Assembly: GCA_051745145.1 (NCBI GenBank)
Contig: JBNJDT010000001.1
Location: 25,899-89,898, forward strand
Length of the DNA stretch: 64,000 nt
Reading direction: 5' to 3'
Origin: Elusimicrobiota bacterium
Lineage (GTDB): Bacteria; CG03; SLGR01; JAGXOG01
The notes beneath the pieces were generated by a model. It saw nothing but the letters and a program-made list of their open reading frames with translations, was not told where the DNA came from and did not search any database. A program made the translations under genes and the position numbers. This document shows positions 10,119-53,921 of the stretch, piece by piece. The stretch's first letter is position 1, and the number at the start of each line of letters is the position of its first letter.

Positions 10119-10191
10119 TCGATTTACCTCCTGTTGCCATTTTTTTTAAAACCCAATTTATATTCAATTTGTATGCCTGTAAAACTAAAAA

Positions 10192-10431
10192 GAAACTTCT
10201 GTAAGCCGGATTCTGTTTTAACGGTCATTTATCTGGGCGGTCTACCCAAAGCTCAAATGCCACGGGCCGCGGCTCGCTTTCTATTTGACCTCGCTTTTTC
10301 CGGGGTTTAACCTTTTCACTACGGCATTTCCGTACTTAGTTTCTGTGTCACTTTCCCGAAATGCCCTGTAAAGTCCGGACTTTCCTCTCCCTAATTAATA
10401 TCTAATCAGAGAGCGACCGATCAGAAGTTTC
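10192..10431 (-). ncRNA. rnpB: RNase P RNA (bacterial type A-like, minimized, about 240 nt)
   Basis: The minus-strand transcript contains the universal P4 strands GGAAAGUCCGGAC...UACAGGGCA and ACAGAAUCCGGCUUACAG. A perfect 10-bp P1 stem (5' GAAACUUCUG with 3' CAGAAGUUUC) delimits the molecule. It sits in a GC-elevated 364-nt intergenic gap. Confidence 0.8.
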
Positions 10432-10482
10432 TTTTAATTATTATTTAACTTTACTCTGAAATTTTAAATCCTGCGGCCAATG

Positions 10483-11652: not shown

Positions 11653-11728
11653 TGGTGGGCAATGCAGGATTTGAACCTGCGGCCTTTCGGATGTGAACCG
11701 AACACTCTCACCACTGAGCTAATTGCCC
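11653..11728 (-). tRNA. tRNA-Val (anticodon CAC)
   Basis: Manual fold of the minus-strand sequence GGGCAAUUAGCUCAGUGGUGAGAGUGUUCGGUUCACAUCCGAAAGGCCGCAGGUUCAAAUCCUGCAUUGCCCACCA. Acceptor, D, anticodon (loop UUCACAU) and T arms all pair. CCA is encoded. Confidence 0.85.
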
Positions 11729-11752
11729 GTGTTAGCTTAAAAACTTTAAATA

Positions 11753-11829
11753 TGGTGGGCCCACCAGGACTTGAACCTGGGACACCCTGATTATGAGTCA
11801 GGTGCTCTAACCAACTGAGCTACGGGCCC
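11753..11829 (-). tRNA. tRNA-Met (anticodon CAU, elongator-type; could be tRNA-Ile2/lysidine)
   Basis: Minus-strand GGGCCCGUAGCUCAGUUGGUUAGAGCACCUGACUCAUAAUCAGGGUGUCCCAGGUUCAAGUCCUGGUGGGCCCACCA. Cloverleaf with anticodon loop CUCAUAA. The anticodon stem lacks the three G-C pairs of an initiator tRNA. Confidence 0.8.
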
Positions 11830-38380: not shown

Positions 38381-38641
38381 TTTAAGCCGGAATTCCTATA
38401 TATATTACCGATGCTATAGTATTTTTTTTGGCCACTTTTTACCTAAAACTTCTTTTATATAATATGTTTATCATCTTTTTTCTCTGCAGTCCTGATTTAA
38501 CTTCCCGTAATTATAATTTAATATCCTGTTTTATTGTTCTAATTTTTTACATATCCCGAACTTTAAAGTCAAATTACCTTAGACCGCTGCTATTAACTCT
38601 AATAATTTTATATAGATAATTAATTTGCCTGACTTTTATAT

Positions 38642-38673
38642 TTGCAAAAAAAAAATAAAATTGTTATTATAAT
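38642..38673 (+). promoter_or_regulatory. Putative sigma70-type promoter for the giant adhesin operon
   Basis: TTGCAA, 17-nt spacer, then TATTAT (with TATAAT 3 nt further), about 90 nt upstream of the ATG at 38762 in an AT-rich leader. Confidence 0.3.
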
Positions 38674-38761
38674 GGGGAATAATGAGAATAATTAATTAAA
38701 ATTTTTATATTAATAATGCTATTATTTTATCTAAAATTTATTATTAGTTAAATGAAAATCC

Positions 38762-41700
38762 ATGATTTCCAAACTTAATTTTTTCCGGCACTTAACAGAT
38801 TTTCCAATCCGAATTCTTACTTGTAAGAAATTATCGCTAATTTTCTTGCTTTTAGCTGGCATTGTCGCCACCCCTGCACACGCTCAAGAACCTAAGCTGG
38901 TAGGGGCCCAGACCTATTCTGCGGCCGGCGTGCTAAACAGCGTCGCTACCGATTCCAATGATTACATATATTCTGCGGGAAAAAAGATTCCCGGGGACTA
39001 TGAGGCCACCACTGACTGGGTATATCTTAAAACCAGTTACCAAAAAGGCTGGTACTGGTGGTGGTATGACCGGTGGATAAATCACTTTACTCTGGTAAAA
39101 GATTTTTCCGGTGGTTTAAACGACGAGGCAACCTCTATAACTTTAGGGGATACCTATGCATACATGACCGGATTTGTCGAAGAATTACATACCTGGACTT
39201 ATGAATATGAAGATTTAGATGGAAACCAGCAGCAAGAAGAGGTCAGTATGCCCCTTCCCCAGGCTTACCTGTGGCAATACACCACAGGAGGCAGTCAAAA
39301 CAGGATGATTTCTCTACCAGGATACACCCAGTCCGAATTTATGGGCAGCAGTGTGGACAGCAGCAACAATATTTATACCGGGTATTACGCCGGCGAAATA
39401 ACAGATGACGACCCTGAAAACTTACAGTTTGAATACGAGATAGGTTTAATAAGTTTTTCATCCGGCGGTTCAGAAATTGACCGCCATCAATACGAGACCG
39501 GCACCGGCAGTTCAAACGATATGGAAAGTATCGACATTAATGAAACTTTTGTGCGGGGAAATTATGTCTATGTAGTCGGGGAACAGTCGGGCGATATGAC
39601 AAGAAAAGCTTTTGTCGCCAAACACGATATAAACACCCTAGATGAAGTCTGGTTTAAAACCGTTGGCGACTTTGATCTGGATGCCCAGGATAGTTCGGGG
39701 ATGGATGTAGCTGTAGATTCTAACGATAATGTATTTTTTACGGTTTCCTACTCCGATTATGCCCGGCTTATTAAACTTAATTCCGACGGTTCTTTAAACA
39801 GCCATAAAAAGGAGCAGGCATCAGGCACTACCCGCATGGGAGGATTAGCTTTAAAAGATGCCGATAATGAGATATATGTTTCCGGTGAATACGACGGTAA
39901 GGCAGCATTTTTTAAATACGATACCGACCTTAACCAACAATATATTTATGATGTATCCCAGGATGAGCCCAATGCTTACCCGACTGATGTCTCTATAAGC
40001 GCAAATAATGATATAGTTCTGGTCGGTACAGACGAAGTCGGGGACGAATCCCGGCTATGGGTAGCAAAATACAGGGAATTTGAATCTACCCAATTAATGC
40101 AACTGGAAGTTGACCCCGGATATTTAGAACCCTCATTCCAGGTGGAACAATCCACCTATGATGTTACGGTAAGCTCTGATGTAAATACAATTGATGTAAC
40201 CGCCACCCTGGCCGATGAAAGTTCTTCCTTAACTGTTGACGGTAAAAGTGCTGAAAGCGGAGAACCTGAAACAGTTGATCTTAACAATTCCACGGGTACT
40301 ACAACTGAAATAGATGTAGTAATTACAGATAATGACAGTAATACAGAGACTTACACTCTTTATGTATACCGATCCGGAGAAATACTTAATGACAGCGCCA
40401 AACTGGGTAATTTAACCGTAGATCACGGATTATTAAATCCGGGGTTTGCATCCGGTACTACCGAATACGATGTCGATGTAGCCTGGGATGTCGCAAGCAT
40501 AGGCGTAACTCCCACCCTTTCCGGGGATAATCCAAACGCCGTAATAGAAGTTAACCATAAACGGATAAACGACAATACTACTGAAGAAATCCCCCTTAAT
40601 GAGGGCGGTACGACCACGGATATAGAAGTTTTAGTTATTTCAGAGGACGGCAGTGCCCAGACAACATATACTATTACTGTCAACAGAGATGCGCCGTCGC
40701 AGGATGCGGATCTAAATGATCTGGACCTAAATCCCGGAAATTTAGAGCCGGGCTTTGATTCCCAGGATACAGACTACAACGTAAAGGTAAGTTCTGATGT
40801 TACAGCTACAGATGTAACTGCTACCCTATCCGATTCAGACGCTTCACTAACAATTGATGATAATCAGGCTACCTCCGGGAACCCGGAAACTATAACCTTA
40901 GGTGGGCCGGGATCAGAGACGAAAATAGATGTCATGGTTACCGCCGCCGACAATGAAACTACAAAAACTTATACCGTATATGTAAAAAGATCAGAACAGA
41001 TGCTTAATGACAATGCCAACTTAGATTATCTTATGATTACCCCCGGGGAGTTAGAACCGGGGTTTGATTCATCTACTCTTGACTATACTGTAGATGTCGC
41101 CCATGATGTTGAAGAAGTTGATTTAACGGCTTACCCTGAAGATATCCAGAACGCTTTTGTTTCAATTGACGGTACGCGCGCTGAAAACGGTACAAAAACT
41201 ATTAATCTTAATTCAGCAGGCTCTTCTACTGTAATAGATATTACCGTAAGCGCAGAAGACGGTGAAACCGAAAAATCTTATACCGTGACTGTAAATAGAG
41301 CTGCAGCTCCGCCATCTGATAACGCAAATTTATCCGGTTTAACGATATCCCCGGGTACACTTGACCCCGTATTTGACAGTTACATCACCGACTATGACGT
41401 TGAAGTGGCTTCTGATATCGGCAATGTCGATGTTTCTGCCACGGCGGACGATACAAATGCAACTCTAACCATTGACGGAGATAGCGTTAGCAGTAAAAAC
41501 ATAACTCTTAATCCTGCCGGGGAAACAAAAAATATAGATATTGTAGTTACCGCAGAAAATGGTTCCACTAAAGAATATTCCATACTGGTAAAAAGACTGG
41601 CTCCACCCTCCGGTGATGCCGACCTCGATGATCTGGACTTGGACCCTGGCAACTTAAAGCCGGCATTTTCTGCTGGTGAGACCAGCTACAACGTAAAGGT

Positions 41701-44062
41701 CAGTTCCGACGTTGAAAATACCGATGTAACAGCTTTTCTATCGGACAAAAACGCCGGGCTTAAAATTAACGGGGATCCTGTTTCAGGCGGCGAATCTGAG
41801 AGAGTTTATCTCAGTGGAGATGGCTCCACCACCACCATAACAATTAATGTTACTGCCGAAGACGGTACTACTACAAAAACTTATACTGTAGATGTATACC
41901 GACTGCACCGGTACGATGACCCTCTCAATGATGATACCGACCTGGAAGATATGTCAGTTAACCCCGGAGAATTAGAACCGGAATTCACTTCTTATACCAC
42001 AAACTACGAAGCCGAGGTGGCCCACGATGTTACCGAAGTAATTTTAACTTCTACCCGCTCCGATACAAACGCAATAGCCGAAATCAACGGCAGCCGGATA
42101 GATAGCGGCGAGCATAAAACAATTGCTCTTAATGACGAGACTACTACCACCGAAATAGATATTAAAGTTACAGCTGAGGACGGTGATACCCAAAAGACTT
42201 ATACCGTTACTGTCGAAAGAAATCCGTCTACTGATGCACGTCTAAATAATTTATCTATCGATCCGGGCAGTCTTTCACCGAGTTTCAGTACCGGAACTTT
42301 TAGCTACACCTCTAACGTGGGACCGGCAACAGGAACAGTAAACATAACCGCCGGACTATCCGATACTAATGCCTCTTTAAAAATTAATGGCTTTGCCGCT
42401 ACTAATAATCAGGCTGAAACTGTTTCTTTAAATCCAAAAGATTCAACAACTACTATAGATATTGTAGTTACAGCTGAAGACGAATCTACGACAAAAACTT
42501 ATACTGTTAAAATATACCGGGATCCTTCCGATAATACAGACCTTACCGAACTGGATCTGCATCCCGGAAATTTAGATTCTCCCTTTGATAATTCTACTAC
42601 TTTGTATACCGCAAAAGTAAGTTCTAATGTAGAGGAGACTGAAATAACCGCTACCCTTTCCGATGAAAACGCTGGTTTAAAAATTGACAACGCAACAGCT
42701 TCAAGCGGCGAAGCTGAAACTATCGAACTGGGAGTAAAAGGAACGACAACAACAGTATATACCACTATTACCGCTCAAGACGGGGTTTCCCAGGCTACTT
42801 ACACAGTAAAAGTTTACAGGTCAGAAAAAATACTTAACGACAACGCCTCACTTACAAATATGTATGTCGTACCCGGATATTTAGAGCCTAATTTTTCAGC
42901 CGGTATTACAGATTATGATGTAAATTTAGATTACGACGATGACGCTATCAGTATCACCCCTGTTCTATCAGATAAAAAAGCTATAGTAAATATAAATGAT
43001 AGTAGAGTTGAAAGCGGTAGCCAGAAGACGGTCAACTTAAACAACCCCGGATCGGAGACTGTAATAGATATTGTAGTTACAGCCGAAGACGGTTTTACAA
43101 AACGCAGCTACAAAATTACAGTAACAAGAGCGTCCGGACCCGGCTACCGGGCCCTCTTATCAGCCCTAAATTTAAATCCGGGAAATTTAGACAAACAATT
43201 TAATAAAAATATTACCGGTTATAAAACTAAGGTAAGCTCCAATGTCACAGCTATTGATATTACCGCTACTCTTTTAGATGAAAATGCTTCTATGTCTATT
43301 ATCGGGGATGAAACTGACAGCGGAACACCAAAAACCGTATCAATCGGCCGGAAAGGTTCAACGACAACTGTCGAAATACTGGTTACATCCGCCGACGGCG
43401 AAAACGAAAAGATTTACACTGTCAGTATAGTCCGGTCCACTGTAATGCTTAATGACAATGCCTTTTTAATAAACCTACTGATTACCCCCGGGGAATTAGA
43501 ACCGCTTTTTTCTAAAAATGCCACTAAGTATGAAGTTGAAGTAGAATACAACGTCGGCCAGATTCAAATTATCCCCTTTATTGCCGATAAAAAAGGAATT
43601 ATAGAAATTAATAATAACAGAACCGCAGACGGTAAACCGGAAACTATTGCTCTGGGGTCCCCGGGTACAGAAACTAAAATAACGGCCACGGCAACTGCCG
43701 AAAATGGCGCCAGCTCAAAAGAGTATCAAATCACTGTACTTAAAGGTATCTTATCGGAAGTGGAAGACCCCTACGATGAGGTGTACGTGGTGGGAGGTAA
43801 AGAAGGATTTATTAATCTGAATACCGGTGAAAAACCTAAAATTTATTTTACCGCCCAAGAAAGCGGAGAAGTAAGATATACTATCTACACCCTTAATGCA
43901 GATCTGGTTTATGAAGATGTAATGTATACCGGCAAAGGGGAAAATTATATTGAATGGGATGTAACTAATTTCAGGAATAATACCGTAGAACCGGGAATTT
44001 ATATTATACGGCTGGAAGGCCCCGGTTTTGAAGAACAGAGGAAAATACCTATTCTCAAATGA
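38762..44062 (+). CDS. Giant secreted cell-surface adhesin: signal peptide, SBBP-type beta-propeller, 13 tandem cadherin-like beta-sandwich repeats, T9SS-type (Por/FlgD-Ig-like) C-terminal sorting domain
   Basis: 1766 aa. N-terminal signal peptide (LLLAGIVATPAHA). SBBP-like propeller blades (e.g. SSGMDVAVDSNDNVFFTVSYSD). About 13 repeats of 95-100 aa of the form 'DLxxLxxxPGxLxPxFxxxxxxYxxxVxxxVxxxxxTAxxxDxxAxxxIxG...TYTVxVxR'. C-terminal about 80 aa (RYTIYTLNADLVYEDVMYTGKGENYIEWDVTNFRNNTVEPGIYIIRLEGPGFEEQRKIPILK) matches the secretion-system C-terminal sorting domain pattern. Confidence 0.75.
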   Translation: MISKLNFFRHLTDFPIRILTCKKLSLIFLLLAGIVATPAHAQEPKLVGAQTYSAAGVLNSVATDSNDYIYSAGKKIPGDYEATTDWVYLKTSYQKGWYWWWYDRWINHFTLVKDFSGGLNDEATSITLGDTYAYMTGFVEELHTWTYEYEDLDGNQQQEEVSMPLPQAYLWQYTTGGSQNRMISLPGYTQSEFMGSSVDSSNNIYTGYYAGEITDDDPENLQFEYEIGLISFSSGGSEIDRHQYETGTGSSNDMESIDINETFVRGNYVYVVGEQSGDMTRKAFVAKHDINTLDEVWFKTVGDFDLDAQDSSGMDVAVDSNDNVFFTVSYSDYARLIKLNSDGSLNSHKKEQASGTTRMGGLALKDADNEIYVSGEYDGKAAFFKYDTDLNQQYIYDVSQDEPNAYPTDVSISANNDIVLVGTDEVGDESRLWVAKYREFESTQLMQLEVDPGYLEPSFQVEQSTYDVTVSSDVNTIDVTATLADESSSLTVDGKSAESGEPETVDLNNSTGTTTEIDVVITDNDSNTETYTLYVYRSGEILNDSAKLGNLTVDHGLLNPGFASGTTEYDVDVAWDVASIGVTPTLSGDNPNAVIEVNHKRINDNTTEEIPLNEGGTTTDIEVLVISEDGSAQTTYTITVNRDAPSQDADLNDLDLNPGNLEPGFDSQDTDYNVKVSSDVTATDVTATLSDSDASLTIDDNQATSGNPETITLGGPGSETKIDVMVTAADNETTKTYTVYVKRSEQMLNDNANLDYLMITPGELEPGFDSSTLDYTVDVAHDVEEVDLTAYPEDIQNAFVSIDGTRAENGTKTINLNSAGSSTVIDITVSAEDGETEKSYTVTVNRAAAPPSDNANLSGLTISPGTLDPVFDSYITDYDVEVASDIGNVDVSATADDTNATLTIDGDSVSSKNITLNPAGETKNIDIVVTAENGSTKEYSILVKRLAPPSGDADLDDLDLDPGNLKPAFSAGETSYNVKVSSDVENTDVTAFLSDKNAGLKINGDPVSGGESERVYLSGDGSTTTITINVTAEDGTTTKTYTVDVYRLHRYDDPLNDDTDLEDMSVNPGELEPEFTSYTTNYEAEVAHDVTEVILTSTRSDTNAIAEINGSRIDSGEHKTIALNDETTTTEIDIKVTAEDGDTQKTYTVTVERNPSTDARLNNLSIDPGSLSPSFSTGTFSYTSNVGPATGTVNITAGLSDTNASLKINGFAATNNQAETVSLNPKDSTTTIDIVVTAEDESTTKTYTVKIYRDPSDNTDLTELDLHPGNLDSPFDNSTTLYTAKVSSNVEETEITATLSDENAGLKIDNATASSGEAETIELGVKGTTTTVYTTITAQDGVSQATYTVKVYRSEKILNDNASLTNMYVVPGYLEPNFSAGITDYDVNLDYDDDAISITPVLSDKKAIVNINDSRVESGSQKTVNLNNPGSETVIDIVVTAEDGFTKRSYKITVTRASGPGYRALLSALNLNPGNLDKQFNKNITGYKTKVSSNVTAIDITATLLDENASMSIIGDETDSGTPKTVSIGRKGSTTTVEILVTSADGENEKIYTVSIVRSTVMLNDNAFLINLLITPGELEPLFSKNATKYEVEVEYNVGQIQIIPFIADKKGIIEINNNRTADGKPETIALGSPGTETKITATATAENGASSKEYQITVLKGILSEVEDPYDEVYVVGGKEGFINLNTGEKPKIYFTAQESGEVRYTIYTLNADLVYEDVMYTGKGENYIEWDVTNFRNNTVEPGIYIIRLEGPGFEEQRKIPILK
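40100..43740 (+). repeat. Approximately 13 tandem in-frame about 290-nt repeats encoding cadherin-like beta-sandwich domains (inside the adhesin CDS)
   Basis: A periodic protein motif (PG.LEP.F......Y.V.V......I.V.A...D..A...I.G .. T.TY.V.V.R) recurs every 95-100 aa. The nucleotide copies are diverged rather than identical. Confidence 0.7.
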
Positions 44063-45033
44063 TTTTTTTTATGAAAAAATATAAAATATTTTCGTCTCTT
44101 ATTACTCTATTAGTTTTCATCTGCGCAGATACTTACGGAGAAAGCGGAGAAGCGGCGGGCATCACCTTAACTAAACCTGTAACAGCTTCCCAGGCAGTTT
44201 TATACAATGCGGTTTCCGGGGACACCGGTTTAAAAACTTTTGGAGTTAATCCCGCGGGCTTAACAGGCCTGGAAAAAAGAGAATTATCATTTATGTACAA
44301 CCGGGGACATTTTGAAGATGATTTTGTGTCGGCAACCTACGGACAGCAGATTTATTCAGTATATATCGGAGCCAATGTAATTTATAGAACCACCGGTAAA
44401 GTAGGTATTTATACCTCCGGCGGTGAATACGTAAAAGAGATAGGGCAGGAAGACACTGTTTTTTCTTTAACCGCTTCCCTGCCGGGGATACCCGGGTATA
44501 ACATGCCGGTGGGTATTAATTTAACTATGTTAGAATCCAGTATTTTTGGATATTCTGCTACATCTTATCTTATAGATGCCGGTACCCAGAAAACAATAAA
44601 TTTTAAAAATAGCAATTTGCGGTTAGGGGCTAGCCTGAGAAATCTCGGTACAAAACTTAAATATTTAGAAAAATATTCAGATATACCCTCTTCAATGCAG
44701 ACGGGTTTAAAATATTCTATAGCCATAGGGGAGGATAAATTATCTGCAAATTCTGATTTAAACTTCCCCCTTAATTCTAAAGATATTTATCTTATGGGGG
44801 GCTTGGATTATAAAGTGATTTTAAATACTGAAGGCACTTTTACCAGAGGTGGAGTTTTTGACAGTTTAACTTTTATGACAGGAGGAAAAATGAATATAAA
44901 TTCAGAAAATTCTAATCCCAGAATAAATTTAGGTTTGGAGATAGAAACAAAACCTTATACATTCAGCTATGTAATGAATCTGGTTCAAGACATTAATTTA
45001 GGTCACTATATATCTTTAGGATTTAAACTTTAA
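44059..45033 (+). CDS. Outer-membrane beta-barrel protein, PorP/SprF-like (candidate cognate partner of the upstream CTD cargo)
   Basis: 324 aa. Signal peptide (true start probably the MKKYKIF at 44071). The N-terminal region VNPAGLTGLEKRELSFMYNRGHF resembles the PorP/SprF INPAYAGS...LTGLYRNQW block. The protein is beta-strand-rich with alternating hydrophobics and ends in an aromatic/hydrophobic C-terminus (LGFKL). Its ATG overlaps the adhesin stop (ATGA). Confidence 0.45.
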   Translation: MIFFMKKYKIFSSLITLLVFICADTYGESGEAAGITLTKPVTASQAVLYNAVSGDTGLKTFGVNPAGLTGLEKRELSFMYNRGHFEDDFVSATYGQQIYSVYIGANVIYRTTGKVGIYTSGGEYVKEIGQEDTVFSLTASLPGIPGYNMPVGINLTMLESSIFGYSATSYLIDAGTQKTINFKNSNLRLGASLRNLGTKLKYLEKYSDIPSSMQTGLKYSIAIGEDKLSANSDLNFPLNSKDIYLMGGLDYKVILNTEGTFTRGGVFDSLTFMTGGKMNINSENSNPRINLGLEIETKPYTFSYVMNLVQDINLGHYISLGFKL

Positions 45034-45041
45034 GGTCTGCC

Positions 45042-46910
45042 ATGGCTATATTCGGAAAAGACAAGGAAAAATTCAAGGAATTGGAAGAACAGGTGGTCCG
45101 GTTAAAAAAAGAGATTTCTTCTTTAGAAAGCAAGGTCAAACAAAAAACCGGAAAAATACACCAATTACAAAGCTGGAAAAAGTTATATAAAAATTTTAAT
45201 AAGACTATCGGAATCCCTCTGGTTATCTTTTCCCCTGATTTAAAAGTAACTTTTATAAATGATAAAGCCGCAAGATTTTTTAATTCCAGGCCTTCCAGAT
45301 TAAGCGGTAAAAACTGCCATGAACTTTTCTTTCCAGATTCGGACGAAGAATATAATACCGATAAAAAATTCTTTAGTGATGTTCTACTCCACTCTAAAGA
45401 AAAATTATTTCCCTGCGGTCCAAAAAATAAAAAAGTAATATCAATTTTAGATTATAATCGTATATCAGGCACACAGGATAAAGACCACATTGACTATATA
45501 CTTTTTAAGGATTTAAGTTCTATAACCGGAATAAACGAGCTGTGGGAATACAGGGACGGTCAAAATTTAAAGGATGGTAAATTCACACTTCCGGTAGCCC
45601 CCAAAAGCATACCGGAAACCGGACTTAACAGAGAATTTTTGGCGGACCTTGTCTTAAAGATATTATATTCTTACGGAGAGCTGTCCGGAGAAAAAATAAG
45701 TAAAATTTTGTGTCTGCCTTTTAAAAACATAGTGGAAAATATACTTTCCTATTTAAATAAAGGCGATGCCTATATAACCAGTATTTCTGTTTCTAAAGAA
45801 AAAGTGGGCTCACCGGCGCTTTACCCCTATAAACTTACCCAGACCGGTTTAGCACGCACAAAAGAAATTATGGAAAGAAATAAGTATGTAGGGCCGGCCC
45901 CCGTACCTATTGAAAAATACCGCGAAATTATAAACAGTCAAAAAAGGCTGTCTCATGATGTCACTACCCAGGACATACAAGATTCACTTTCAGATTTAGT
46001 GCTCGGGCAAGATTTAATCAGAAAACTTACTATTGCGTTAACATCAAAAGAAACCGTCTTTCTTCACGGCCCACCGGGAAATGGTAAAAGTACTATTTCA
46101 AAAACCTGCAGCAATATTTACCGGGACAAAGTCCTTATCCCCCATGCTATAGAAGTTGATTCTCAAATAATAAAAGTTTTTGATCCGGTATACCATAAAA
46201 AGATATATAAAGATAACACCGGAGAGAATGAGCTGCATAAAAAAGGCTATATAAAAGAGAGTTTTTCGCTGTTTAAAAAGAAGAACCGCCAGTTTGACAG
46301 GAGATGGAATATGTGCAAAAGCCCTCTTATCGTAGCCGGCGGAGAACTTACACTGGATGATCTGGAATTAAAATACGATCCTATTTCTAAATTTTATGAG
46401 GCCCCCCTTCAGATAAAAGCAAACGGCGGAGCACTGGTAATAGATGACTTTGGCAGGCAAAAAGTAAGTCCCGAAGCCCTTCTAAACAGATGGATGGTCC
46501 CTCTTGAAGAAAAGATAGATTATGTAAGAATGCATACCGGCAAACAGGTAATTATTCCCCTGGACCAGATTCTACTGTTTTCCACAAATCTGAAACCCGA
46601 AAATCTGGGAGATGAGGCTTTTTTCAGACGTCTTAAAAATAAAATTTTTGTCAAGGATCCAACGGAAGAACAATTTCGCGAAATATTTCAGATGGCCTGC
46701 CGGGATTTTGATTTTAAAACTTCGCCTCAAATTGAAGAATATGTGATTCGAAAAATTAAAGATGCCGAGCTCAATTTAAGAGGATATATCCCCAGGGATC
46801 TGCTAAAGAATGCGGCGGCAATATCATCAATCGATGCCCCAAAAACCGAAAAGACAAAGCCCTTAAAAAAGGAAATTATTGACGAAGCATTTGAAAACTG
46901 TTTTCTATAG
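45042..46910 (+). CDS. AAA+ ATPase (helix-2-insert clade-like) with N-terminal coiled coil, PAS-like and winged-helix-like regions
   Basis: 622 aa. Walker A GPPGNGKSTI, Walker B ALVIDDFGRQ, then LLNRWMVPLEEK...IPLDQILLFSTNL (MoxR/ComM/McrB-like arrangement). The N-terminal 300 aa have a coiled coil and a PAS-like block (GIPLVIFSPDLKVTFINDKAARFF). It is 9 nt downstream of the PorP-like gene. Confidence 0.55.
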   Translation: MAIFGKDKEKFKELEEQVVRLKKEISSLESKVKQKTGKIHQLQSWKKLYKNFNKTIGIPLVIFSPDLKVTFINDKAARFFNSRPSRLSGKNCHELFFPDSDEEYNTDKKFFSDVLLHSKEKLFPCGPKNKKVISILDYNRISGTQDKDHIDYILFKDLSSITGINELWEYRDGQNLKDGKFTLPVAPKSIPETGLNREFLADLVLKILYSYGELSGEKISKILCLPFKNIVENILSYLNKGDAYITSISVSKEKVGSPALYPYKLTQTGLARTKEIMERNKYVGPAPVPIEKYREIINSQKRLSHDVTTQDIQDSLSDLVLGQDLIRKLTIALTSKETVFLHGPPGNGKSTISKTCSNIYRDKVLIPHAIEVDSQIIKVFDPVYHKKIYKDNTGENELHKKGYIKESFSLFKKKNRQFDRRWNMCKSPLIVAGGELTLDDLELKYDPISKFYEAPLQIKANGGALVIDDFGRQKVSPEALLNRWMVPLEEKIDYVRMHTGKQVIIPLDQILLFSTNLKPENLGDEAFFRRLKNKIFVKDPTEEQFREIFQMACRDFDFKTSPQIEEYVIRKIKDAELNLRGYIPRDLLKNAAAISSIDAPKTEKTKPLKKEIIDEAFENCFL

Positions 46911-47007: not shown

Positions 47008-47658
47008 TTGGTCATGTTTTCTCGAAAAAAAGAAAAAAAAGTTCAAAAATTAATTAAAGAACACTTTAAAGCTGTCTCCCAGACAGTTAAGAGTATGGAA
47101 GATACAATAGAAAGCTACCTCAAAGAAGATATCGGAGAGCCCGGTGAATTTGCTTACAAAACTCATGAATTTGAAAGTAACGCCGACTCTTTAAGAAGAG
47201 AAATAATAGAGACCCTTTACAAAGGTGCTTTTTTCCCTTCCATTAGAGAAGATCTGGTAAATTTTGTGGCAAGACAGGATAATATCGCCGATGCGGCTGA
47301 ATCCTGCTGTGATTTTATCATTTCTCAACATCCGGAGGTTCCCGATAAATACACTGAAGATATTTTAAAACTAGCCCGGGCTTCTTATGAGACTCTTCCC
47401 CCCTTGGAAAAAGCAGTTACCCATTACTTTAACGACTATAAGGAAGTTAAAAAATATATTAAGGAAGTTAATACTAAAGAAGAAGATGCCGATACAATGG
47501 AATGGCATCTTACCGAAGAAATTTTTAAAAGTAAAGATATTTCCCTTGCCGAAAAAATGCATATTAACGAATTCATATTTCATATTGTGCATATATCCGA
47601 TATAATTGAAGATGCGGCCGATATGCTCGATTCGGTTATCATAAAGAAAAGTATTTAA
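47008..47658 (+). CDS. DUF47 (PhoU-like, TIGR00153) family protein
   Basis: 216 aa. Signature FESNADSLRREIIETLYKGAFFPSIREDL...NIADAAE typical of DUF47. Confidence 0.65.
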   Translation: MVMFSRKKEKKVQKLIKEHFKAVSQTVKSMEDTIESYLKEDIGEPGEFAYKTHEFESNADSLRREIIETLYKGAFFPSIREDLVNFVARQDNIADAAESCCDFIISQHPEVPDKYTEDILKLARASYETLPPLEKAVTHYFNDYKEVKKYIKEVNTKEEDADTMEWHLTEEIFKSKDISLAEKMHINEFIFHIVHISDIIEDAADMLDSVIIKKSI

Positions 47659-47697
47659 CTTTTTTATACATAAAAATATTCAAGTTTTACATTAAAG

Positions 47698-48060
47698 ATG
47701 GCTGAGCTGCTTGACAAAAATAAGAATCATATTGCTGAAGTTTCTATGGCGGATACTTTTTTAAAAAAGCTTCTGGGGCTGATGTTCAAAAAAGATATTC
47801 CCTACAATGTGGCTCACTATTTTCCGGGTACAGCTTTAATTCACATGTTTTTTATGAGATTTTCTATAGATGTCGTATATTTAAAGTCTATTAAAAAAAA
47901 ATCTGCACAGAAAAAATTTAAGATAGTGAAAATAGTTAAAGCTCTTAAACCCTGGAGGATTTCCGGCTCCCTGAAAGCTGATTCGCTTTTAGAATTAAAA
48001 GCCGGGAGTACGGCAGTAAAAAAAATAAAAAAAAATGAATTTGTCTTTATCAAAAATTAA
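47698..48060 (+). CDS. DUF192 family protein
   Basis: 120 aa. The GLMF...IDVVYL...LELKAGS pattern is consistent with DUF192 (COG1430). Confidence 0.45.
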   Translation: MAELLDKNKNHIAEVSMADTFLKKLLGLMFKKDIPYNVAHYFPGTALIHMFFMRFSIDVVYLKSIKKKSAQKKFKIVKIVKALKPWRISGSLKADSLLELKAGSTAVKKIKKNEFVFIKN

Positions 48061-48078
48061 TAAAAGTTTGAATATCCC

Positions 48079-48609
48079 ATGCTGAAAGAATATCTTACTC
48101 CCGTAAATATTACTCTTTTATTTTTAATTATTACAACTACCTTTACGGATTTAAAATATCAGAAAATTTACAACCATTTTACCTTTCCCTGCATAATATT
48201 GGGATGGGGCTTTAACTTAATGGAAAACGGATTTATTGAAGGTTTTTACAGAACTGCTTTTTTAGGATTTCTTGCCGGAGGGGCCCTTCTTTTCATTTTT
48301 TACATGGCCGGGGGGATGGGGGCCGGTGATGTGAAATTTTTAGCTGCAGTCGGCGCTCTTAAAGGCCCTCACTTTGTATTCAATGCTACACTTCACGGTG
48401 CTATATTAGGTGGTGTATTTACAGTGCTCTATCTATTATTTACCGGTCATCTTATTGAAACTATCTCCAACACTGCTACGATAATATACAGAACCTTGAC
48501 TTTAAAAAAATTAAATGTACAATCAAAAGAAATGGAGGGGGTTTATCTCCCGTACGGTTTTTTTCTAAGTTTAGGTGTAGTTTCCTGGTTTTTAATTAAT
48601 AAATTATGA
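48079..48609 (+). CDS. tadV: Type IV prepilin peptidase, short TadV/CpaA-type (A24 family)
   Basis: 176 aa polytopic membrane protein. Catalytic Asp motifs (TFTDLKYQKIYN...; GGMGAGDVKFLAAVGA). It lacks the N-terminal methyltransferase domain, as in the Flp-pilus peptidases. Confidence 0.7.
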   Translation: MLKEYLTPVNITLLFLIITTTFTDLKYQKIYNHFTFPCIILGWGFNLMENGFIEGFYRTAFLGFLAGGALLFIFYMAGGMGAGDVKFLAAVGALKGPHFVFNATLHGAILGGVFTVLYLLFTGHLIETISNTATIIYRTLTLKKLNVQSKEMEGVYLPYGFFLSLGVVSWFLINKL

Positions 48610-49751
48610 TAAAAAAAATTTTAAATAAAATTGTAGTAAGTGCGGCAATAAAATTAGGGGTAGTATCATTTTTTATTATTGCTATAATGCTGTTCTTTTT
48701 AATGAATACCCCTCTCGAGGAAACCCGCAAAGAATTAGACGGACAGCTCATTTCTATAGGTACAAATCTAGTTGAAGCCTACCAGACAGACACAGAAAAT
48801 GCCATTATTAAAAAAGATGATATAAGTCTTAATGAATATATGAGCCAGATAATGGGATTTCCAAGAACACGGTTTGCCATGGTCCTTGATCCGGACGGTT
48901 ATGTAAAAGCCCACAACGATATGCAAGAATGGGGAGAACAGTACAAAGACAGTGAAACTTTAGAAGTTTTGAGGGATCGGGAGTTTACAATATACAGGCG
49001 CCAGCATGACGGTGAACCTCTTTTTGAACTTGTGCAGCCCTTAAGAAGTTCCTACGGTGAATTTATCGGGGTTCTCCGGGTTGGGTTTTCGGCAGAAGGA
49101 ATAACCAGTACTATGGAAAGCTTAAAAGCCCAAACCCGTAAAATGATTGTCCTCTGGGCCCTTATAATAGCCTTTGTAGTGGGACTTGCATCCAAACAGA
49201 TAACTCTCTACGGCGCACCTAAAATAAAATATATTCTAAATACTATAATGGCCGAACGCTGGGATGAAGAGGAGAAAAAACAGTCTAAAATTATTGATAA
49301 AAAAGATGAGTGGGGCGCCCTGGCCAGACACTGTGATTACATGGCTAAACGTATAGAAGATGAGAAGGAAGTATATAAAGATAAAGCAGAGCAAACTTCT
49401 AAAAACCTGAAAAGTTTTATCCACAATATTGGAAAAGCTTTTAAATCCGGCGCGGTATTGGCAAATTCTGAGAATAAAGTTGTCTATATCAATGATACGG
49501 CCAGACATATTCTTTCTATAGATTCGGCCAGTGAAGTTCATGGCAATCACATAGCCTCAATCTTTAAATCCCGCAAACTTGTAGAATTATTCCAAAAAAG
49601 TCTAAAAAGCCCCAATCAATTGTTAACCAAAAAATTAGATGACCCGGAAGTCACGGTTTCCTGCGTAGGTATTCATTCTGAAGATGGCGATCTTATAAGT
49701 GTTCTTGTTCTTTTAGAACGAAGAAATGAGCCGCGGCCAGATTCAGCTTAA
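48606..49751 (+). CDS. Two-TM membrane sensor-like protein (periplasmic Cache-like domain plus cytoplasmic PAS-like domain, no kinase or output domain)
   Basis: 381 aa. TM1, a periplasmic region of about 150 aa, TM2 (MIVLWALIIAFVVGL), and a cytoplasmic PAS-like block (VVYINDTARHILSIDSASEVHGNHIASIF). It overlaps the tadV stop by 4 nt. Confidence 0.45.
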   Translation: MIKKILNKIVVSAAIKLGVVSFFIIAIMLFFLMNTPLEETRKELDGQLISIGTNLVEAYQTDTENAIIKKDDISLNEYMSQIMGFPRTRFAMVLDPDGYVKAHNDMQEWGEQYKDSETLEVLRDREFTIYRRQHDGEPLFELVQPLRSSYGEFIGVLRVGFSAEGITSTMESLKAQTRKMIVLWALIIAFVVGLASKQITLYGAPKIKYILNTIMAERWDEEEKKQSKIIDKKDEWGALARHCDYMAKRIEDEKEVYKDKAEQTSKNLKSFIHNIGKAFKSGAVLANSENKVVYINDTARHILSIDSASEVHGNHIASIFKSRKLVELFQKSLKSPNQLLTKKLDDPEVTVSCVGIHSEDGDLISVLVLLERRNEPRPDSA

Positions 49752-49803
49752 CTTATTTTTTTCTGTACTATTTTTAGTTTATAAATTACCAAGGTAAGAA
49801 TAA

Positions 49804-50991
49804 ATGTCCAATGACCCCTTAAATAAAAATACGCAATCTAATAAAAATTTAACTACTCTGGTACATTTACTGGCTGTAATTGTTATTACCGGTCTACTCT
49901 TTACCACTGCTGATATATATTTACAGTTTACCGACGTTGGGGAATCATTCCACAATAAAATATGGCCACCGGTTATTATAATTGACAGTAATCCCTCTAT
50001 GGCCGATATTAAATTATTAGATGAAAACAATGAAGTTTTGAAATCTGCAATCACTCCTTTACAAATAAGAGATATTCAACCGGGAAATTATAATTTAAAA
50101 TTATCTAAATTAAACTGGGGAGAAACTGCCCGAAAATTTACAGTAAAAAAGACAGATTCCGGTAAAAGACAATTTTCCATACCTGATTCCAAAAAACTGG
50201 ATAAGAATTACATTATCCCGTTTAAAGTAAAATTTTCCATTAAATCCCGTCCCCAAAAAGCTGACATCTTTATAGATGACAAAAAAGTGGGACAGACTCC
50301 CTATTCTGATTTTATAAATGTAGGAACTTACGATATCAGACTTGAAAAAGAAGGTTTTACTACTATCGGGGATCAATCGGCCAGTCTCGGCTCATGTATA
50401 ATAGATATGACCGCACGGCTGGACCAACAGGATCAGATGGATTCCCGTTTCTGGACCATTTCAGAAAAAGAAAATGTTCCCAAGCATCTAATTTTAACAG
50501 GCTTTTTTCGTAAAAATTATAAGATAACTTCCAACCCTTCTAATGCAAAAATTTATGTAAACTCAAAAATACAGGGAAAAACACCGATAAAAGATTTATC
50601 TTTACCGGCCGGCAGATACCATATAAAAATAATTAAAGGCGGCTACAATGAATGGTCCAAAATTGTAGAAGTTACGGGTAACGATACTAATTCTATAACA
50701 GCGAATTTAACTAAAAAAATCGCCAAGCCTAATGTTAATGTTTACAGAGGAAAACCGGGGAGCGGCGTAGCACCTCCTTCCGCAACAGGTTCTGATTCAC
50801 ATGAAGATATTTGGAACTTGGGTAATCAGGAAAATCTCCCCAATAATATTAACGGTCTTATGAATAAAATTCCCAATTTACCGATGCTTCCCAATAATTT
50901 ATCCAATTCAAGTGGCGGCTGCGAACCCTATACCGGTAATCTTAGCGATCTTGGTACTATCGGTCCTATCGGTGGCGGCTGCGGTAAATGA
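49804..50991 (+). CDS. Membrane-anchored protein with three PEGA domains and a Cys-containing C-terminal tail
   Basis: 395 aa. N-terminal TM anchor. PEGA repeats (IKSRPQKADIFIDDKKVGQTPYSDFINVGTYDIRLEKEGF; ITSNPSNAKIYVNSKIQGKTPIKDLSLPAGRYHIKIIKGGY). C-terminal GGCEPYTGN...GGGCGK. Confidence 0.65.
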   Translation: MSNDPLNKNTQSNKNLTTLVHLLAVIVITGLLFTTADIYLQFTDVGESFHNKIWPPVIIIDSNPSMADIKLLDENNEVLKSAITPLQIRDIQPGNYNLKLSKLNWGETARKFTVKKTDSGKRQFSIPDSKKLDKNYIIPFKVKFSIKSRPQKADIFIDDKKVGQTPYSDFINVGTYDIRLEKEGFTTIGDQSASLGSCIIDMTARLDQQDQMDSRFWTISEKENVPKHLILTGFFRKNYKITSNPSNAKIYVNSKIQGKTPIKDLSLPAGRYHIKIIKGGYNEWSKIVEVTGNDTNSITANLTKKIAKPNVNVYRGKPGSGVAPPSATGSDSHEDIWNLGNQENLPNNINGLMNKIPNLPMLPNNLSNSSGGCEPYTGNLSDLGTIGPIGGGCGK

Positions 50992-52617: not shown

Positions 52618-52785
52618 ATGAAACATTTATTATGTGATGAATCAGGTCAGGGAATGACTGAGTACATTTTAATTGTTCTGTTAATTGCTATTGCCGCATT
52701 CGTTATCATGCAGGCATTTGGTAACACAATTTCAGAAGCCTTCAACGACGCTAAGAAAACCGTACAGAACGCAAGACCTGATTAA
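52618..52785 (+). CDS. flp: Flp/Fap family pilin (class III prepilin), copy 1
   Basis: 55 aa, MKHLLCDESGQGMTEYILIVLLIAIAAFVIMQAFGNTISEAFNDAKKTVQNARPD, with the Flp motif G/xxxxEY plus a hydrophobic stretch. Strong SD. The gene is missed by the 60-aa ORF track. Confidence 0.8.
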   Translation: MKHLLCDESGQGMTEYILIVLLIAIAAFVIMQAFGNTISEAFNDAKKTVQNARPD

Positions 52786-53339: not shown

Positions 53340-53507
53340 ATGAAACATTTATTATGTGATGAATCAGGTCAGGGAATGACAGAATACATTTTAATTGTTC
53401 TGTTAATTGCTATTGCCGCATTCGTTATCATGCAGGCATTTGGTAACACAATTTCAGAAGCCTTCAACGACGCTAAGAAAACCGTACAGAACGCAAGACC
53501 TGATTAA
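53340..53507 (+). CDS. flp: Flp/Fap family pilin, copy 2 (protein identical to copy 1; synonymous nucleotide differences)
   Basis: 55 aa identical to copy 1. For example, GAATGACAGAATAC here versus GAATGACTGAGTAC in copy 1. Confidence 0.8.
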   Translation: MKHLLCDESGQGMTEYILIVLLIAIAAFVIMQAFGNTISEAFNDAKKTVQNARPD

Positions 53508-53753: not shown

Positions 53754-53921
53754 ATGAAACATTTATTACGTGACGAATCAGGTCAGGGAATGACTGAGTA
53801 CATTTTAATTGTTCTGTTAATTGCTATCGCTGCATTTGTTATCATGCAGGCATTTGGTAACACCATTTCAGAGGCTTTTAACGACGCTAAACAAACTGTA
53901 GGGAACGCAAGACCTGATTAA
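53754..53921 (+). CDS. flp: Flp/Fap family pilin, copy 3 (variant: C6R, K47Q, Q51G)
   Basis: 55 aa, MKHLLRDESGQGMTEYILIVLLIAIAAFVIMQAFGNTISEAFNDAKQTVGNARPD. Confidence 0.8.
   Translation: MKHLLRDESGQGMTEYILIVLLIAIAAFVIMQAFGNTISEAFNDAKQTVGNARPD

Follow-up and report, generated by a model that had tools for sequence, protein, structure and literature searches.

A sorting-domain adhesin and a PorV/PorQ-like outer-membrane barrel as a probable two-gene surface-display cassette in Elusimicrobiota

A stretch of 64,000 nucleotides from an Elusimicrobiota bacterium (contig JBNJDT010000001.1 of assembly GCA_051745145.1, positions 25,899 to 89,898; here called the window) carries three tightly packed open reading frames (ORFs) on the forward strand of a metagenome-assembled genome (MAG) contig. 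They encode a giant cadherin-repeat protein that ends in a C-terminal sorting-like domain (CTD; gene 1), a beta-barrel protein (gene 2) and an AAA+ ATPase (gene 3). Genes 1 and 2 probably constitute a two-gene surface-display cassette, in which a cargo protein is encoded together with its cognate outer-membrane anchor or shuttle. This reading builds on the domain and family identities of the two proteins, on the fold of the barrel, and on the observation that CTD and barrel genes are strictly paired in cis across bacterial lineages and diverge together.

The gene 2 protein has no match in Pfam, and NCBI annotates it, like the ATPase, as 'hypothetical protein'. Among the NCBIfam models it matches the PorV/PorQ family model NF033709 (E 3e-13) with 49.9 bits, below the 90-bit cut-off, and it scores 43.1 bits against the PorQ equivalog model NF033711 (E 2.7e-11; cut-off 220) and 18.6 bits against the PorV equivalog model NF033710 (cut-off 250). 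Judged by these profiles, gene 2 is a distant member of the PorV/PorQ family and an orthologue of neither PorQ nor PorV. A first-pass annotation of the window had placed the protein in the PorP/SprF family, an assignment that has to be given up in favor of PorV/PorQ, since NCBIfam yields no match to TIGR03519 at E<=0.1. An exhaustive HMMER search with the gene 2 barrel returned 864 cluster representatives at E<=1e-3, and 40 aligned full-length homologues served as family sample. All 40 match NF033709 (best 6e-60), 39 match the PorQ model, 39 the PorV model and 28 the 'PorV2' model, while matches to PorP/SprF were found for 2/40 (best 2e-7). Several close homologues are called 'PorV/PorQ family protein [Elusimicrobiota bacterium]' by NCBI. 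AlphaFold2 (AF2) modelling from a two-sequence alignment was unusable (predicted local distance difference test, pLDDT, of 26), and the 40-sequence alignment was used instead. With this alignment a confident beta-barrel was obtained (pLDDT 90.7, predicted template modelling score 0.84), as had been anticipated for the 324-aa protein. The best Foldseek matches in the PDB are 8gl6_F (E 2e-11) and 6h3i_F (E 1e-9), with template modelling (TM) scores of 0.72-0.73 and a probability of 1.00. Both are entries of the Flavobacterium johnsoniae type 9 translocon, a substrate-bound complex and structural snapshots, respectively, and we take their chain F to be PorV. The third-best match is FadL (2r89) with a TM score of 0.55. 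Residues N60-P61 of the VNPAGLTG... block are invariant over the 40 barrel sequences; they are equivalent to the NPA motif in the N-terminal segment of FadL-type proteins.

The extreme C-terminus of gene 1 matches TIGR04183, the model of the type A sorting domain of the type 9 secretion system (T9SS), with 16-17 bits (best 16.8) against a cut-off of 23 bits and E values of 0.0049-0.008; FlgD_ig is matched weakly as well. The aligned CTDs of the family fit better, since 6/6 match TIGR04183 (best E 1.4e-9) and several of these six also match the models of PorU and PorZ over the part that covers their CTD. One further relative (P0272) is named by NCBI as T9SS type A sorting domain protein. Family membership of both CTD and barrel is transitive and rests on the family as a whole, because the copies in the window score below the cut-offs. 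At this family level, profile similarity relates the gene 1 CTD, as a divergent member, to T9SS type A sorting domains and the FlgD_ig fold. A scan of the C-terminal 123 aa of gene 1 against Pfam and NCBIfam at E<=10 gave no type B CTD (TIGR04131) or CHU_C model. The tail had been described before as a T9SS-type CTD, next to a presumed partner of type B cargo. Its resemblance to a sorting domain holds, and the type that it resembles is A, not B.

Barrel homologues were collected by a genome-collection profile scan with a 7-sequence alignment and by contig look-ups, and locally built CTD and barrel hidden Markov models (HMMs) were run on every six-frame ORF of the barrel loci. In all barrel genes with readable upstream sequence, the preceding gene on the same strand ends in the CTD. 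This holds for 11/11 pairs at 10 loci, which come from MAGs of Elusimicrobiota, of Sumerlaeota and without classification (Table 1). The two genes are separated by 0-220 nt or overlap by 4 nt. At two loci (L013 and L019) the barrel is located at a contig edge, and in L019 a CTD protein comes after the barrel. The passengers are mutually unrelated, ranging from cadherin-like over Peptidase_S8 and SBBP-like to PD40/Tricorn proteins, and the CTDs are alignable throughout. Pairwise identities of CTDs and barrels are tightly correlated (r 0.89, Mantel p 0.0008, 9 pairs), also for paralogous pairs within one genome. The pairs therefore appear to duplicate and diverge as units. With this pairing and co-divergence, the earlier idea of a CTD adhesin with a dedicated outer-membrane barrel is borne out. 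The genes downstream of the other pairs vary and encode a GbsR-like regulator together with a glycosyltransferase, NrdR/NrdD, or CysN. L017 (3311-10909; also L018) has two tandem cassettes, each with a Peptidase_S8-CTD protein and, after it, a PorV/PorQ-like barrel. Two 409-aa proteins without Pfam match flank these cassettes, and one of the two weakly matches the barrel HMM (E 2.8e-7). Cassettes can evidently form arrays.

We propose that the 1766-aa gene 1 protein would be exported via Sec and that its passenger, a propeller-like domain followed by 12 cadherin-like repeats, would reach the cell surface as an adhesin. The Ig-like CTD of about 95 aa would be recognised by the PorV/PorQ-family barrel encoded directly downstream, which would serve as a private outer-membrane receptor, that is, as shuttle and/or non-covalent anchor. 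Passage of the outer membrane would occur via the T9SS translocon, if the host genome has one. The physical binding of CTD and barrel, the surface exposure of the passenger and the route across the outer membrane are what we infer.

A comparable arrangement is known from Porphyromonas gingivalis, where PorQ holds PorZ by its uncleaved CTD and PorV holds the CTD of PorU (PMC10947112, PMC10202324). There, too, a barrel retains a surface protein by its C-terminal Ig-like domain; gene 2 has the same family and fold, and the CTDs of the gene 1 family match the models of PorZ and PorU in the CTD region. The systems differ in that each cargo gene described here is directly followed by its own barrel gene, that the cargo is an adhesin, a protease or a propeller protein instead of a T9SS component, and that the host belongs to Elusimicrobiota instead of Bacteroidota. 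Moreover, the barrel of the window is far from reaching the equivalog cut-offs of PorQ (43 vs 220 bits) and PorV (19 vs 250 bits). Adhesins with a type B CTD, SprB of F. johnsoniae among them, are genetically linked to, and dependent on, cognate PorP/SprF barrels (PMC12618676, PMC9143113). The combination of a large repetitive adhesin with a dedicated PorV-like barrel follows the same logic of 'one cargo, one barrel'. In contrast to SprF, the barrel of the window lacks a TIGR03519 match at E<=0.1 and only two homologues of the sample match this model, weakly, and in contrast to SprB the gene 1 CTD resembles type A (TIGR04183, below the cut-off) and not type B or CHU_C. For Flavobacterium, one general PorV is described as serving all type A CTDs (PMC12618676), and in Bacteroidota private barrels, PorP/SprF, are described for type B cargo only, whereas here every type-A-like cargo comes with a private barrel.

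Gene 3 encodes a member of the AAA+ ATPase superfamily, as indicated by its Walker A (GPPGNGKS) and Walker B (VIDDFGRQ) motifs. The N-terminus is coiled-coil-like and a PAS match at aa 55-109 is sub-threshold, so that the features read earlier from the translation (AAA+, coiled coil, PAS-like) are found again. Over 28 sequences of the ATPase family, the Walker, sensor and arginine motifs are conserved: G343-K349 (GPPGNGK), D468-D469, F513/T515/N516 and R529-R530 are invariant, and S514 of the FSTN motif is nearly so. Gene 3 itself reaches 27.1 bits against the 27-bit threshold of bpMoxR, PF00004 matches 18/28 family members, and the family profile matches Sec18, VAT, midasin and spastin at ~1e-7. 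Pfam contains no family dedicated to the gene 3 core, and a search of the PDB with the family profile gave generic AAA+ chains or a marginal McrB match only. From these matches the protein can be assigned at the generic AAA+ level and to no specific clade. The C-terminal ~440 aa of gene 3 place it in a large family (1287 matches among 8000 candidates scored). For members from Myxococcales, Chloroflexi and other groups, the annotation goes no further than 'AAA family ATPase' or 'predicted ATPase with chaperone activity'. These orphan ATPases from Myxococcales and Chloroflexi share 39-42% identity with gene 3 over aa 180-622, including the Walker A/B, YVGPAPVP, DRRW, QxKANGG and DDFGRQ blocks. 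Proteins of the Elusimicrobiota clade differ from them by ~180 additional N-terminal aa, with a coiled coil and a PAS-like domain. A defence role was considered and rejected, as PADLOC gave weak generic IetA-type AAA matches only (~1e-7). All-against-all clustering found a gene for a tetratricopeptide-repeat (TPR) protein near the ~440-aa ATPase in 16/63 loci (L007, L025, L040, L046, L047 and others). This TPR cluster is probably an artefact of repeat similarity, and the remaining clusters are shadow ORFs.

According to the first-pass annotation, all three genes would form one module, in which the cytoplasmic PAS-AAA+ ATPase would specifically regulate the cargo-barrel pair or act as its chaperone, and which would represent a non-canonical system of secretion or adhesion. 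We consider this quite unlikely. The common strand, the 8 nt between genes 2 and 3 and the lack of a terminator-like site between them speak for a module, as does the presence of the same trio in the 75%-identical relative L001/L010. However, the whole 14.5-kb contig of this relative is syntenic with the window, including five downstream genes, so that the adjacency has little independent weight. Full-length ATPase orthologues with 44-46% identity (L003-L006, L020) adjoin Peptidase_M48/YbjQ genes, and the ~440-aa core occurs widely among Myxococcales and Chloroflexi, with unrelated genes around it. Neither a barrel gene nor a CTD gene is present in any of the 54 further metagenome ATPase loci (298 kb) or, the L001/L010 relative excepted, at the other ATPase-relative loci examined. 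Conversely, the ATPase-family HMM run on the pair loci matched only in the window and in L010. Examination of neighbourhood conservation thus places the ATPase beside the pair in the window and in one close syntenic relative, and nowhere else among the loci examined. Apart from this one relative, this is one of the outcomes that the first-pass annotation had itself named as refuting its idea. Its adjacency is most likely incidental in this lineage and functionally unrelated to the pair, and the lead of an 'AAA+ ATPase in a T9SS operon' should be dropped.

Several points weigh against a cargo-receptor cassette of genes 1 and 2. In the window, the CTD (16.8 vs 23 bits) and the barrel (49.9 vs 90 bits) both fall below the NCBIfam cut-offs. 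Adjoining genes with a shared history are expected to diverge in parallel anyway, so that the correlation does not prove specificity of the proposed binding between CTD and barrel. Because the spacing to gene 2 is only 8 nt and the intervening sequence is free of terminator-like sites, gene 3 may be co-transcribed with the pair, and a functional link specific to this lineage is conceivable. Finally, scans of the window's ORFs with Pfam and NCBIfam found no T9SS core gene (SprA/Sov, PorK/L/M/N (GldK-N), PorU or PorT) within the 64 kb, which leaves the translocation step unexplained. The last point leads to another possibility, namely that export is independent of a T9SS and that the PorV/PorQ-like barrel itself passes and anchors the CTD protein encoded upstream, similar to a two-partner system. 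The host belongs to Elusimicrobiota, and reviews describe the T9SS as confined to Bacteroidota or the Fibrobacterota-Chlorobiota-Bacteroidota (FCB) superphylum (PMC12398890, PMC10202324); our literature search found no link between Elusimicrobia or Sumerlaeota and T9SS, PorV or CTD. The Pfam annotations of the genes that flank the pairs in L017, L019, L074 and L075 contain no Peptidase_C25/PorU, and the strict 1:1 cis-pairing, with pairs that duplicate as units, fits a self-contained system. However, the barrel is small and, from its PorV/FadL homology, has a plug-like NPAG segment, which makes the passage of a multi-domain protein of 1700 aa implausible. In addition, the pair-bearing Elusimicrobiota contig of L074 (GCA_042580445.1, 13551-15138) encodes a BNR/DUF6242 protein with a weak Pfam match to CHU_C, the type B CTD, a hint at other T9SS-style sorting signals, and possibly a real T9SS, in Elusimicrobiota. 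CsgG-like lipoprotein genes are found near this gene. On balance, transport by the barrel itself seems unlikely to us. It is likewise doubtful that the cassettes of Elusimicrobiota, Sumerlaeota and allied bacteria represent a minimal 'one cargo, one barrel' display that works without the T9SS translocon and motor, possibly as ancestor of the PorV, PorQ and PorP/SprF modules.

Gene 2 could also encode an ordinary FadL-type transporter of hydrophobic substrates that neighbours the adhesin gene by coincidence. FadL/TodX channels belong to the same barrel superfamily, and the N-terminal NPA(G) motif is conserved in the gene 2 family; FadL and TodX/CymD channels also turn up in the structural comparison, and one homologue is labelled 'long-subunit fatty acid transport protein' by the Joint Genome Institute (JGI). 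The PorV chains nevertheless fit the model better (TM 0.72-0.73 vs 0.55), and the protein matches the PorV/PorQ profiles. Its conserved partner is a CTD protein, which is encoded directly upstream in every readable pair and co-diverges with the barrel, and not a set of genes for lipid or hydrocarbon catabolism. We therefore regard a mere transporter as very improbable and prefer the cargo-receptor cassette.

The passenger of gene 1 starts after a signal-peptide-like segment (...ATPAHA↓QEP), in agreement with the earlier reading. The following ~400-aa domain had been called an SBBP propeller. This name claims too much, since PF06739 (SBBP) reaches 13.9 bits (E 0.053) against a gathering score of 20.5, and DUF5122 is below its cut-off, too (E 0.034). 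In BLASTP the domain aligns with the SBBP-like passenger of L014 at E 0.022. The domain may be a beta-propeller, with a resemblance to SBBP at the level of sequence motifs. The remaining passenger is a cadherin-like repeat array, which PF12733 matches with E 2e-184 and 599 bits (gathering score 24.2) in 12 stretches. An HMM derived from the repeats themselves likewise finds 12 domains, one fewer than the 13 counted before. The repeat period is 98-106 aa, mostly ~100-103 aa. Tandem repeats are not detectable at the DNA level within the array, which is therefore considered to be old and without recent expansion. By eye and unquantified, two sub-types of repeat seem to take turns along the array, which suggests a two-unit super-repeat of ~206 aa.

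Table 1. Features of the three-gene region in the window (coordinates in nucleotides of the window) and loci with a CTD gene-barrel pair.
Feature or locus	Coordinates	Strand	Description	Basis
Intergenic region upstream of gene 1	38381..38761	+	AT-rich, 381 nt, divergent from Na/Ca-exchanger gene	
Gene 1	38762-44062	+	ORF of 1766 aa	
Gene 1, signal-peptide-like N-terminus	38762..38884	+	aa 1-41, ...IVATPAHA↓QEP	Read from translation, without predictor
Gene 1, N-terminal domain	38885..40075	+	~400 aa, SBBP-like 'D-S-N-D-N-I' motifs	
Gene 1, cadherin-like repeats	40076..43720	+	Twelve beta-sandwich repeats, aa 439-1653	PF12733
Gene 1, CTD	43778..44062 (stop included)	+	aa 1673-1766, ending ...GIYIIRLEGPGFEEQRKIPILK	TIGR04183 (below cut-off; family copies match), FlgD_ig-like
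Gene 2	44059-45033	+	ORF of 324 aa as first delimited; PorV/PorQ-family (FadL-like) barrel, signal peptide, conserved N-terminal NPAG block	NF033709 (below cut-off; homologues match), AF2, Foldseek
Gene 3	45042-46910	+	ORF of 622 aa; coiled-coil, PAS-like, winged-helix-turn-helix-like and AAA+ ATPase regions	Motifs, HMM matches
Pair in window	Gene 1 + gene 2	+		
L010, L011, L012			Three paralogous pairs in one MAG	
L014			Two CTD genes, then barrel	
L015			Elusimicrobia; CTD gene-barrel pair	
L016			Sumerlaeota; CTD gene-barrel pair	
L017/L018			Two tandem pairs, subtilase then barrel	
L074			Elusimicrobiota; CTD gene-barrel pair	
L075			PD40/Tricorn/FlgD_ig protein overlaps barrel by 4 nt	

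The tight packing of the three genes noted in the first-pass annotation holds, with corrections in detail. NCBI models gene 2 as a 320-aa protein that starts with MKKYK at 44071, which leaves a gap of 8 nt after the gene 1 stop, and this start is the more likely one; at the orthologous locus L001 the spacing of genes 1 and 2 is 14 nt. The ATGA overlap of the two genes therefore hinges on the choice of start codon. The 9-nt gap given before for genes 2 and 3 measures 8 nt. The intergenic region upstream of gene 1 presumably holds its promoter; it contains several sigma-70-like matches, in a number no higher than in shuffled sequence. A search of this region with Rfam gave no match at E<=1, and hence no riboswitch or other RNA element upstream of gene 1.

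The surroundings within the 64 kb are ordinary chromosome, with a dcw cluster (murD, mraY, murF, murE, ftsI, ftsL, rsmH), AddAB-type helicase-nucleases, PEPCK and purine biosynthesis genes. The Na/Ca exchanger gene upstream of gene 1 is oriented in the opposite direction. On the 3' side of gene 3 lies a gene string, PhoU_div (DUF47)-DUF192-A24 prepilin peptidase-sCache_3/PAS-PEGA, which is found after the ATPase gene in the window (47008-50991) and in L001 (10766-14425), without a phosphate transporter gene beside PhoU_div. About 4 kb downstream of the gene for the 176-aa A24 prepilin peptidase (48079-48609) lie three tandem, near-identical 55-aa ORFs (MKHLLCDESGQGMTEYILIVLLIAIAAFVIMQAF...; 52618-52785, 53340-53507 and 53754-53921, + strand), which resemble Flp/Fap-type (type IVb) prepilins and share a G↓xxxxEY processing motif. 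We recognised neither TadA/TadB/TadC nor secretin genes within the window. At 10187-10432 (- strand) a match to the bacterial class A RNase P RNA covers model positions 1-367 in only 246 nt (137 bits), which suggests a markedly reduced RNase P RNA, and two tRNA genes are located at 11656-11829 (- strand).

Taken as a cargo-receptor cassette, the gene pair ties a type-A-like CTD in cis to a private PorV/PorQ-like barrel, with many different passengers and in phyla for which the cited literature describes no T9SS. If the hosts carry a T9SS, its repertoire of cargo-specific shuttles would be larger, and the rule that a barrel gene lies beside a CTD gene would predict surface proteins of uncultured bacteria. 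If the hosts have no T9SS, the cassettes would suggest that the CTD/PorV recognition pair is used outside a T9SS, and would indicate how this pair originated in evolution.

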